Source: Candidatus Onthousia excrementipullorum (GTDB taxonomy: Bacteria > Bacillota_I > Bacilli_A > RF39 > UBA660). From it: 64,000 nucleotides of DNA. The first letter of the stretch is position 1. Each line of letters opens with the position of its first letter. A model generated the notes under the pieces. The model was not told where the DNA came from. It made no database searches and saw nothing but the letters and a program-made list of their open reading frames with translations. Location of the stretch: contig DVHC01000055.1 in NCBI GenBank assembly GCA_018712385.1, positions 1,448 to 65,447 on the forward strand. Reading direction: 5' to 3'. Position numbers and translations under genes: made by a program. Below, piece after piece: positions 49,631 through 51,502 of this stretch.

Positions 49631-51502
49631 ATGGTTAAAAATATAGGGAGAACTTTGAAAGAGAATAAGAAAAAGGTGGCTATTATTACTCTTGTAGTTC
49701 TTTTAATTATAATTATTGGTGTTTCATATGCTTGGCTTAGGACAACTTTAAAAGGAAAAAAGGATGTTCAAATTATAGTTGGTAATATAGATTTAGTCTT
49801 AAATGAAAAAAATGATGGTATACAACTTGTGAATGTTATTCCAACATATGATGATGATGGAAAAAGTGGTACACCTTATCAGTTTTCACTTGAGAATAAA
49901 AGTAATATAGGATTATATTATACACTTTCATTAGTAGATGATGAAGAAGCTTTATCTAATTGTCAAACAACAGATGGAGGAAGTTGTGAATTGTTAGATC
50001 CTAGAGATGTAAGATATGAACTTAAAATGGGAGATAGAACATTTACAGGAAGTCTTTCTGATTCATCAATTATAAGTTATGGAGTTATAGATTCTAAAGA
50101 AGTAATTGATGGAGAGTTAAAAGTTTGGTTAAATATAAATGCTACTAATGAAGCGATGGGTAAAGTATATTTAGGACAACTTAAAGTATTTGCAACACAA
50201 CAAGTAGATGACCCTGATTTTGAACAAGGAAATGATGCAGTTAATGCTCCAGATATGGATAGTAATATGATTGCAATTAAACATGATGGTTATAATTGGG
50301 TTAAAACGGATACTAGTAATGGTTGGTATAACTATGATATGGGTATATGGGCTAATGCTGTTACTGTAAAAAGTGATAAGTTAGCTGAATACACAAGTGC
50401 TCCAGTTGGAACAGAGATAAATATGGATGATGTAGAGACAATGTGGGTATGGATACCGAGATATAGTTATACAATAGCAAGTGAGAATGGAACAACTTAT
50501 TACGGAAAAAGAGGAGTGTATTTGAACAGTAATCCAACAGCAGCTTTACCAGGAGAGATTGATATTAAGTTTATAAGTAAAGATGAAAAAGATACAGGTA
50601 CTGCAAAATATCTTGCAACGGAAAAACCTAAAAATTGGTATACTCCAGATGCATTTACTTATGATGGAGAGGAACTTTCTGGAATTTGGGTAGGAAAGTT
50701 TGAGACAAGTAGTAGTAATCCAAGTGCAAGTAATGGCGGAGGAAATGTAACTAACCTTGATGCGATGATAAAACCAAATGTAACAAGTTGGAGAAATATA
50801 AATGTAAGTAATATTCATGCAGTAGCGACAAAAGTGAGTGCGGCTGGGAATAGATATGGATTTAGTACAAATATGAACTCACATTCTATGAAAAATAATG
50901 AATGGGCAGTAGTAAGTTATTTAAGTCAAAGTAAATATGGGAAATTAGGAAATGAGAACTATACAGGTGCAGAAAAGGAAGTATATCAAAATAAATCAGA
51001 TAGTTATATAACGGGATGTAGTTATGGAAGTCCAAGTAATGCAAATACAGATTATGGATGTCAATATACATATGATAATAATATAAGAACAGAAGAAGGA
51101 ATGACAGGAAAAGGAGTAGGAGCCAGTACAACGGGAACAATCTATGGTGTATATGATATGTCAGGAGGAGCTTGGGAGTATGTTATGGGAAACTATAACG
51201 ATATGGTAGCTTCAAGTGGATTTGAGAGTATGCCAGAAGCAAAGTATTATAACAAGTATACAAGTAATAATCCTAGTACAGCATGTAATGGAAGTGAATG
51301 TTTATCACATGGATTAAGTGAGACATCAGGATGGTATAATGATGCTAGGACGATGGTAAGTGAGGAGTACCCATGGTTGTTGCGCGGCGGTCTCTGTTAC
51401 AACACTTCTAGTGCGGGTGTTTTCGGCTTCGGTGCCTGGCTTCTTGGTAATGGTAGCAGCAGTGGCTCGTTCCGCCTCGTGATGAGCGTGACTAGTCCGT
51501 AA
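49631..51502 (+). CDS. DGR target protein: SipW-type signal/anchor, TasA/BsaA-like module, central domain, C-terminal C-type-lectin (FGE-sulfatase-like) fold carrying the VR
   Basis: N-terminal IIGVSYAWLRTTLKGKKDVQIIVGNIDLVLNEKNDGIQLVNVIPTYDDDG is collinear with the 4-7.6 kb paralogues. C-terminal GGAWEYVMGNY...WLLRGGLCYNTSSAGVFGFGAWLLGNGSSSGSFRLVMS is a typical CLec-type DGR VR. Confidence 0.85.
   Translation: MVKNIGRTLKENKKKVAIITLVVLLIIIIGVSYAWLRTTLKGKKDVQIIVGNIDLVLNEKNDGIQLVNVIPTYDDDGKSGTPYQFSLENKSNIGLYYTLSLVDDEEALSNCQTTDGGSCELLDPRDVRYELKMGDRTFTGSLSDSSIISYGVIDSKEVIDGELKVWLNINATNEAMGKVYLGQLKVFATQQVDDPDFEQGNDAVNAPDMDSNMIAIKHDGYNWVKTDTSNGWYNYDMGIWANAVTVKSDKLAEYTSAPVGTEINMDDVETMWVWIPRYSYTIASENGTTYYGKRGVYLNSNPTAALPGEIDIKFISKDEKDTGTAKYLATEKPKNWYTPDAFTYDGEELSGIWVGKFETSSSNPSASNGGGNVTNLDAMIKPNVTSWRNINVSNIHAVATKVSAAGNRYGFSTNMNSHSMKNNEWAVVSYLSQSKYGKLGNENYTGAEKEVYQNKSDSYITGCSYGSPSNANTDYGCQYTYDNNIRTEEGMTGKGVGASTTGTIYGVYDMSGGAWEYVMGNYNDMVASSGFESMPEAKYYNKYTSNNPSTACNGSECLSHGLSETSGWYNDARTMVSEEYPWLLRGGLCYNTSSAGVFGFGAWLLGNGSSSGSFRLVMSVTSP
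51374..51489 (+). repeat. DGR variable region (VR)
   Basis: Aligns without gaps to 53227-53342. In the 72-nt diversified core there are 16 differences. All 16 lie at TR adenines (16 of 26 adenines changed, 0 of 46 non-adenine positions). Local GC is far above the genome background. Confidence 0.92.

Follow-up and report, generated by a model that had tools for sequence, protein, structure and literature searches.

The window analysed here, a stretch of 64,000 nucleotides (nt) of Candidatus Onthousia excrementipullorum (GCA_018712385.1, contig DVHC01000055.1, positions 1,448-65,447 of the forward strand), encodes a protein whose C-terminal end is rewritten by a diversity-generating retroelement (DGR). 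The N-terminal ~190 residues of this protein, the DGR target, are a full member of a superfamily of modules, to which five tandem paralogues and a sixth small protein (8317-8865) from a sipW cluster of the same window also belong. From the sequence comparisons it is close to certain that the target is a chimera of such a module and a diversified head. A fibre or another scaffold at the cell surface probably bears this variable binding head. While the homology is a solid result, the part of the proposal that concerns a fibre is attractive and testable, and unproven.

Homology of the N-terminal module

An earlier note on this DNA, made from the sequence alone, described the N-terminus of the target as collinear with the five paralogues and the 8317-8865 protein. 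The open reading frames (ORFs) lie where it placed them, all peptides that it quoted are present, and the collinearity is real and far above chance by BLASTP, hhalign, hidden Markov models (HMMs) and multiple alignment. BLASTP with residues 1-200 of the target matched the paralogue at 6246 (E=1e-8, 37% identity over residues 28-79) and the 8317-8865 protein (E=5e-9, 29% identity over residues 69-180). The profile of the five paralogues matched the target in hhalign with a probability of 96% (E=1.5e-9). Two HMMs were searched against the 100 ORFs of the window, each of at least 60 amino acids (aa). The first, made from 120 database relatives of the five paralogues, retrieved these paralogues, then the target (E=1.4e-10) and then the 8317 protein (E=6e-4), with the next match at E=0.39. 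The second, the superfamily HMM, matched exactly seven ORFs, namely the target, the five paralogues and the 8317 protein. Target residues 10-192 aligned with model positions 4-186 (E=1e-53) when the target itself was left out of the model.

The module of the target consists of a short basic N-terminus, a hydrophobic helix, the G-x-S-Y-A site, a conserved strand-prone segment of ~25 residues and a beta-sandwich of ~140 residues. Multiple alignments of the modules are collinear from the signal peptide through the last strand, and the G-x-S-Y-A signal-peptidase motif is common to target and paralogues. The profile comparison proposed in the earlier note confirmed, at the level of sequence, that target residues ~10-192 are homologous along the full module to the five paralogues and the 8317-8865 protein. 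The description of the target as a chimera of a sipW-cluster-type module and a DGR-diversified head is thus supported by BLASTP, hhalign and HMMs, and also by the sister targets described below. Pfam and NCBIfam scans of all module proteins of the window detected no family at threshold. Sequence searches of the PDB with the target, the paralogue profile, the superfamily profile and the head profile found nothing, and a word-indexed homologue search with the target N-terminus gave 17 close relatives, mostly truncated, with no tie to other families. The positions of all features are collected in Table 1.

Table 1. Features of the window discussed in the text (arrow, predicted cleavage position)
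Feature	Position	Strand	Support
DGR variable protein, 623 aa, N-terminal module and diversified head	49631-51502	+	ORF; complete or almost complete homologues encoded at 18 loci of related genomes
Hydrophobic signal/transmembrane segment (residues 16-31) ending in G-V-S-Y-A (residues 30-34); predicted type I signal-peptidase site SYA↓W	49676-49732	+	
Fibre-subunit-like beta-sandwich module (residues 10-192)	49658-50206	+	HMM, AlphaFold2 model, BLASTP, hhalign
Head region (residues ~200-623), putatively FGE-sulfatase/C-type-lectin-like, variable repeat at C-terminal end	50229-51499	+	
Variable repeat (VR)	51374-51488	+	
Cognate template repeat (TR), third cassette of the array	53227-53341	+	
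Tandem array, ~350-nt period, one A-poor VR-like remnant and six A-rich TR cassettes	52541-54869	+	
DGR accessory protein bAvd	54913-55269	+	PF22296, 82.7 bits
DGR reverse transcriptase	55254-56318	+	PF00078 (RVT_1), 67.7 bits
Five tandem module-only paralogues, 202-210 aa, candidate shaft subunits	4055-4678, 4801-5424, 5538-6170, 6246-6854, 6944-7576	+	
SipW-type (archaeal-type) signal peptidase I	7637-8320	+	TIGR02228
Module-only protein with Leu at -1 of a non-canonical site (T-S-V-L↓W), candidate terminator or membrane anchor that escapes cleavage	8317-8865	+	HMM E=1e-50
Two conserved membrane-protein genes, 229 and 155 aa	8866-10026	+	Present in 32/33 related sipW loci

Exchange of heads and modules in related genomes

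Homologues of the target were found in 18 loci from related metagenome-assembled genomes (MAGs) labelled as uncultured Tenericutes, Bacilli or Candidatus Onthousia, a genus in Bacilli incertae sedis. Sister targets with different modules have heads 63-86% identical to that of the window. The MAG CAMMBX possesses four target-type genes. Two of them, L014 and L016, have heads 67-69% identical to the window head, and their modules are 42-44% identical to the window paralogues (E=1e-46 to 1e-48) and only 24% to the window target module; both match the paralogue-family HMM over its full length (E~5e-58). As a shaft-type module stands here on the same head, head and module are separable units that have been recombined, and a shaft-type module can carry a DGR head. 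A third module subtype is present in L015 and L018. In L015 (668-4323, also CAMMBX) the target homologue is immediately followed by a gene in which the same module is fused to DUF6273 instead of the head.

The sipW cluster was also found in 15 of the 16 genomes with the target. In CALVIV, and also in OZ006970, a complete genome of 1.5 Mb, a single molecule contains both at a distance of ~45 kb. This co-location is shared synteny within the clade and is not independent evidence.

The sipW cluster

The gene next to the paralogues had been called a SipW-type peptidase, and this is borne out by a score of 91.2 bits against TIGR02228 (cutoff 51.85). Against the equivalog model of Bacillus SipW the product reaches 91.3 bits, which is under the cutoff of 190; therefore it is a member of the family and not an orthologue. 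The order of the genes is fixed in 33 loci of the same clade, with 3-7 tandem paralogues, sipW, a homologue of the 8317 protein always directly downstream of sipW, and the pair of conserved membrane proteins in 32 of them. Pfam and NCBIfam scans gave no family match for these two membrane proteins, which are possible assembly factors.

The family of the paralogues comprises 2291 clusters. A search by regular expression detected the G-x-S-Y-A motif in four of the five window paralogues, and the fifth possesses SMA. The five are near-identical copies that are predicted to be cleavable, while in the sixth protein, encoded at 8317, Leu replaces the Ala at -1. An A-x-A-Q end, mostly AAAQ, closes three of the five paralogues (within 4055-6170) and 113 of 120 close family members (P0018-P0137). 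On a putative fibre subunit such a tail could be a signal for processing or cross-linking.

The 8317 protein is the closest relative in the window of the body of the target module. At the position of S-Y-A↓W, all 77 members of its family of 175-185 aa that were examined possess T-S-[MIV]-L↓W-Y, in extended form T-S-[MIV]-L-W-Y-[RK]-F-F-Y, whereas the other modules have S-Y-A↓x-F there. Signal peptidase I does not tolerate Leu at -1, and the 8317 protein is therefore expected to keep its helix and is probably not cleaved. This uncleavable-looking family suggests a layout of anchor, shaft and tip.

The diversified head and its retroelement

The assignment of the target as a genuine DGR variable protein holds. 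The VR and the cassette at 53227-53341 differ over 115 nt at 18 positions, all 18 at template adenines (in the core 16 at A and none at other bases), and genes for bAvd and a reverse transcriptase are present 3.4 kb downstream of the target. The last ~35 codons of the head are the part rewritten by the DGR. The protein ends right after the VR, and its C-terminus contains no anchor signal. Genes of the uridine-kinase family, a flavin reductase-rubredoxin, a glycosyltransferase, EF-G and EF-Tu flank the DGR; since these are housekeeping genes, with no phage genes among them, the DGR is cellular and chromosomal rather than phage-borne. The flavin reductase-rubredoxin fusion gene (51694-52353, - strand) lies between the VR and the TR array and parts the target from its templates.

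The earlier note assigned the VR domain to a C-type-lectin/FGE-like fold. Similarity of the ~420-aa head to the FGE-sulfatase family PF03781 was detected in 8 of 11 homologues, in each case sub-threshold (best E=0.001), with a score of 16 bits (E=0.008-0.01) against a cutoff of 23.3. The label is therefore backed by sub-threshold matches, and neither a match at threshold nor a sequence relative in the PDB was found for the head; on these matches a lectin fold is plausible. The first ~90 residues of the head (residues ~200-290, 50229-50500; MIAVKHDGYNWVKTD...WYNYDMGIWANAVTV) recur as a separate unit in the proteins P0140, P0165, P0199 and P0233. One protein of 4516 aa possesses five copies of this unit, which gives weak DUF6600 and BACOVA_00961-like matches.

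Between the target and avd the array contains seven cassettes, each followed by a conserved segment of ~80 nt (GACTATGATATAAGAATTATTTAAGTTATTAT...). Six of them are A-rich (21-26% A) and measure 96-108 nt between anchors, and the current VR has its cognate template in the cassette at 53227-53341 alone. The first cassette (52541-52647) is A-poor (13% A) and T-rich; it is a VR-like remnant, as it shares the exact VR flanks, including GAGCGTGACTA. In L001 (~11752), L010 (~4541) and L011 (~11758) the target gene ends in a copy of this first-cassette sequence, and the ORF measures 592-615 aa against 623 in the window. These A-poor ends could reflect recombination, an 'off' state or assembly collapse.

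The array is kept in relatives with 4-9 cassettes (L004, L005, L008 and L013 compared with the window). In each genome the VR fits one local cassette, from which it differs at adenines only or nearly so, and the cassette used differs between genomes. The target of L013 is 97% identical to that of the window, yet its VR corresponds to a cassette of 108 nt and that of the window to one of 99 nt. From these comparisons it seems that several templates can serve to rewrite a single VR. Such a multi-template array may be more unusual than the finding on the adhesin itself.

The module superfamily

An exhaustive HMMER search, counted in clusters of 50% identity, detected 5187 superfamily clusters at E<=1e-3 and 1983 at E<=1e-10; the profile also took in the first ~90 residues of the head, so that some of these clusters match only the head part. 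The module is essentially complete in 129 of the 145 best matches, and in nearly all of these 129 it starts within the first 20 residues. Twenty of the 129 are module-only proteins (~180-210 aa), and 109 possess C-terminal extensions. Passenger domains in a sample of 40 extensions include BspA-type leucine-rich repeats (LRR), Listeria-Bacteroides repeats, bacterial surface Ig-like domains, DUF285, DUF6273, Laminin_G_3, ALK/LTK glycine-rich domains and dockerin. The superfamily thus carries many adhesin-like passengers, which we count in support of a fibre-borne head. No Pfam or NCBIfam model covers the module, and the ~360 relatives retrieved bear neither a source name nor a Pfam label.

The motif G-x-[ST]-[YF]-A is nearly fixed in 136 aligned modules (G in 102, S/T in 133, Y/F in 124 and A in 126) and is preceded by 16-20 hydrophobic residues. 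By the -3/-1 rule, which defines type I signal-peptidase sites, the motif is a predicted site of this type, conserved far beyond what the rule demands. The segment after the cleavage site is among the better-conserved parts of the alignment, in free and fused modules alike.

Other Bacillota lineages possess two or three tandem module-fusion genes (595, 509 and 410 aa, one with DUF285) at L023/L024 (6413-11206) and L022 (5594-11212). A few ~200-aa proteins beside distant SipW genes of Clostridia match the module weakly (E=1e-4 to 3e-5), and several of them contain [ST]-Y-A-x-[FY]. None of the module-like neighbours at distant SipW loci has a Pfam TasA match.

Relation of the module to TasA

A set of authentic TasA sequences was recovered from 11 Bacillus genomes. 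With signal peptides included, hhalign aligned module positions 13-99 with TasA positions 4-81 (probability 89%, E=2e-6), and the cleavage sites, the TasA donor strand and the next strands are all in register. The donor strand of TasA comprises residues 28-38 (PMC9674648). Against PF12389 (Peptidase_M73, cutoff 22.5 bits) the highest score of a superfamily member is 20.4 bits, for P0268, and the match is confined to the N-terminal 80 residues. The TasA model NF046066 gives 15.7 bits against a cutoff of 450 on the paralogue at 4055, in the same N-terminal region, and no match on the target. These profiles make a distant kinship in the export and strand segment probable, rather than family membership. 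No significant sequence or Foldseek similarity to TasA was detected for the sandwich body.

Structures were compared with Foldseek for AlphaFold2 models of the target module and of one paralogue, and the top 50 matches were considered. The model of the target module has a predicted local distance difference test (pLDDT) score of 76 and shows strands at residues 55-190. In the monomer models the segment after the cleavage site has a pLDDT of 37-54 and the sandwich one of 85-94. A segment that is conserved yet of low pLDDT is as expected for a strand that would fold only in a partner. For the target module the first match was the archaeal pilin AbpA (7UEG; E=3.5e-4, TM score 0.32-0.35, 11% identity), followed by chaperone-usher pilins, including FimH and FimG complexes, and CanA. 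For the paralogue 7UEG is at rank 33 (E=0.019), and the best match has E=1.4e-3. The fold searches otherwise returned generic Ig-like/ASH/PapD-like beta-sandwiches.

The designation of the module as TasA/BsaA-like in the earlier note is thus weakly supported, mainly by the N-terminal profile similarity with the signal peptide included. An assignment to the TasA family was not made, as neither model yielded a convincing fold in Foldseek. We also considered an isopeptide lock between Lys and Asn, of the kind present in BsaA, and dropped it, since N89, the Asn of the target that might take part, has no conserved counterpart in the aligned paralogues.

Proposed assembly and alternative explanations

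By analogy with known fibres we infer that SipW cuts the module proteins, that the paralogues polymerise and that the target becomes part of the fibre. The module proteins would be exported by the Sec pathway and then cut by SipW at SYA↓W. The freed N-terminal segment would become a donor strand and enter the sandwich of the paralogue that follows and is not yet released from the membrane, a mechanism demonstrated for TasA and AbpA (PMC9674648, PMC9245690) and suggested for BsaA (PMC11580942). The target fusion would be the first subunit and the five paralogues the shaft; because each new subunit would accept the strand of an older one, the fusion that starts the chain would end at its distal tip. 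The chain would end on the addition of the uncleavable 8317 protein, held in the membrane as the base, and the DGR would vary the ligand specificity of the tip. This whole chain, from the SipW-cut module and the donor-strand fibre to the target as DGR-varied tip and the 8317 protein as base, is proposed tentatively, with a chance that we place just short of even.

Several observations weigh against a fibre of this kind. The hydrophobic segment is long enough for a permanent membrane anchor. The fibre genes, placed 45 kb away by the earlier note, are indeed far from the target in the same genome, and in the window the distance between target and sipW is 41 kb. No SipW was found within 10 kb of the module fusions in three loci of other lineages, and only 6 of 36 distant SipW loci possess a weak module-like neighbour; the adjacency of SipW and module does not generalise beyond the clade. 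No window protein reaches the curated thresholds for TasA/Peptidase_M73 or for SipW cognates. Without signal peptides the hhalign comparison with TasA falls to E=0.01, with a score of 20.9 against 8.7-13.6 in one reversed and ten column-shuffled controls, and the register is unchanged. The Foldseek matches are weak for target and paralogue models (best E=3.5e-4 and 1.4e-3, TM 0.3-0.35). The fold comparison with TasA suggested in the earlier note placed the TasA-like AbpA first for the target, but TasA itself is missing from the top 50 matches of both models.

The main alternative is a membrane-anchored display stalk, which we regard as a serious although doubtful possibility. The module would here be a generic pedestal, with its helix kept or removed by a housekeeping peptidase, and each module protein, anchored or released, would stand singly at the surface; the paralogues would form a surface coat or an antigenic-variation set, and the target would be a monomeric variable receptor, with no polymer. 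Such a role fits the huge size of the superfamily, the N-terminal position of the module before very different passenger domains, the lack of SipW within 10 kb of module fusions in other lineages, the generic Ig-like/ASH/PapD-like structural matches and the hydrophobic stretch of ~16-20 residues. However, the residues S/T-Y/F-A at -3 to -1 are kept in 124-133 of the 136 members, which argues for cleavage, and a dedicated SipW is present inside the paralogue cluster in 33 loci. The absence of a small -1 residue in the 8317 family is a contrast that is sensible only if the other modules are cleaved, and in the profile alignment the donor strand of TasA falls in register with the N-terminal part of the module.

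In a second alternative, which we consider improbable, SipW or LepB would free the module-head protein into the medium or the cell wall, the module serving as a folding, wall-binding or spacer domain of a soluble binding protein and forming no polymer. The cleavage motif is present, no C-terminal anchor signal follows the VR, where the protein stops, and the large protein BsaC, which a sipW operon encodes, is secreted and does not polymerise (PMC11580942). Nevertheless, a soluble protein leaves unexplained why the sister targets possess a shaft-type module 42-44% identical to the paralogues, and why the segment after the cleavage site is conserved in free and fused modules.

Many DGRs are phage-borne, and part of the similarity between target and paralogues lies in the hydrophobic helix, but a phage receptor-binding protein of the prophage tail-fibre type, or a chance or compositional resemblance, is hardly credible: the former is effectively refuted by housekeeping flanks without phage genes, the superfamily HMM score and the sister targets, and the latter is ruled out by the E-values and by the controls, reversed and shuffled, which were applied to the TasA comparison only; the similarity runs 180 residues beyond the helix at E=1e-53.

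If the donor-strand fibre with a diversified tip is correct, it would provide a function for a superfamily of >5000 clusters that lacks a Pfam or NCBIfam model, and a sequence rule for assembly roles, with Ala or Leu at -1 and a free or fused module. Uncultured gut Bacilli with small genomes would become tractable, and their attachment to a host or partner would be predicted to depend on one programmable adhesin. A wider generalisation, rather unlikely in our judgement, is that donor-strand fibres related to SipW/TasA form a class that is very widespread among gut Bacilli and Clostridia and has so far escaped description. These would consist of an 8317-type anchor, a shaft of tandem paralogues and any fusion of module and passenger (LRR, DUF285, Ig-like or lectin) as interchangeable tip, and in the Candidatus Onthousia clade one tip would be hypervariable by means of a DGR able to rewrite a single VR from each of about six templates of different length. 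Even without a fibre, it is solid for annotation that the module is an exchangeable N-terminal carrier and that DGR heads have moved between carrier subtypes.

Comparison with known systems

Similar to the window, the TasA/TapA/SipW system of B. subtilis and the BsaA/BsaB/BsaC/SipW system of C. perfringens possess a dedicated SipW among small secreted beta-sandwich proteins (PMC9674648, PMC11580942). The signal peptide, cleavage site and following strand of TasA align in register with the module. TapA resembles the target as a minor protein with the same N-terminal segment and extra domains, which initiates the fibre, and BsaC is comparable as a larger cargo in the same operon. According to the assembly model for BsaA, each new subunit, still in the membrane, first receives the strand of its predecessor and is then cut by SipW (PMC11580942). 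TapA and AbpB are described as strand-donating initiators, possibly adhesive (PMC9674648, PMC9245690). In contrast to TasA and BsaA, the window proteins are under the PF12389 and TasA thresholds, their sandwich body is without significant similarity, and there are five tandem major paralogues with a conserved A-x-A-Q tail.

AbpA (PDB 7UEG) is a jelly-roll protein related to TasA; once a signal peptidase has cleaved it, its N-terminal donor strand links the subunits into a polymer, and the authors of its structure proposed AbpB as first-strand donor with distal domains as adhesins (PMC9245690). AbpA is the top structural match of the target module, and the role of AbpB is the one proposed here for the DGR target. 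However, the match is weak, and AbpA belongs to an archaeal pilus with neither a dedicated SipW nor hypervariation.

TvpA of Treponema denticola is reportedly a surface lipoprotein and a DGR variable protein with an FGE-type C-type-lectin fold, with the VR at its extreme C-terminus and a cellular DGR. The target is alike as a presumed surface protein with a VR at the extreme C-terminus of a putatively FGE-sulfatase-like fold (a sub-threshold assignment for the window head) and a cellular DGR; TvpA differs as a lipoprotein without a pilin-like module. FimH-type tip adhesins combine a pilin-like and a lectin domain, are incorporated first, stand at the distal tip and are joined by donor strands, with the need for a periplasmic chaperone and an outer-membrane usher. 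The union of a pilin-like with a lectin domain, in the target a putative one, is common to FimH and the target, as is the tip position, which is proposed for the target. Nonetheless, the order of the domains is reversed, FimH accepts a strand and does not donate one, and there is no homology.

In the literature, we found no paper that joins DGRs with TasA, SipW or camelysin, nor one with a TasA-family member that bears a DGR-diversified domain. The closest precedent for the proposed fibre is the type V pili of Bacteroides, where a DGR diversifies the tip adhesins of pili with an anchor-stalk-tip architecture, assembled by protease-triggered strand exchange (10.1101/2024.11.15.621889). In both cases a chromosomal DGR, or one borne by an integrative and conjugative element, rewrites a C-type-lectin-like end, putatively so in the window, and the other part of the protein is homologous to subunits of a strand-exchange pilus, in the window a candidate one. 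By the proposal made here, protease cleavage would expose or create the strand-exchange site in the window too, and anchor, stalk and tip would be arranged alike. However, neither the pilin fold nor the machinery is related. In the diderm an Arg/Lys protease cuts the type V pilins, which are lipoproteins, whereas the window proteins, from monoderm Bacilli, possess a Sec signal and a SipW-type site. The pilin-like module of the window is N-terminal to the head, and the target lies apart from the subunit genes by 41 kb. Surface localisation was shown by experiment in Bacteroides, and the window system is known from sequence alone. As the target has no Cys or lipobox after the helix and no type V pilin is among its top 50 Foldseek matches, it is an analogue and not a member of that group. 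A DGR-diversified pilus tip is thus already established in Bacteroides, and the window case, if true, would represent a separate solution without homology to it, based on a module superfamily that lacks annotation, and would extend DGR diversification of strand-exchange pilus tips from Bacteroides to an unrelated monoderm system.

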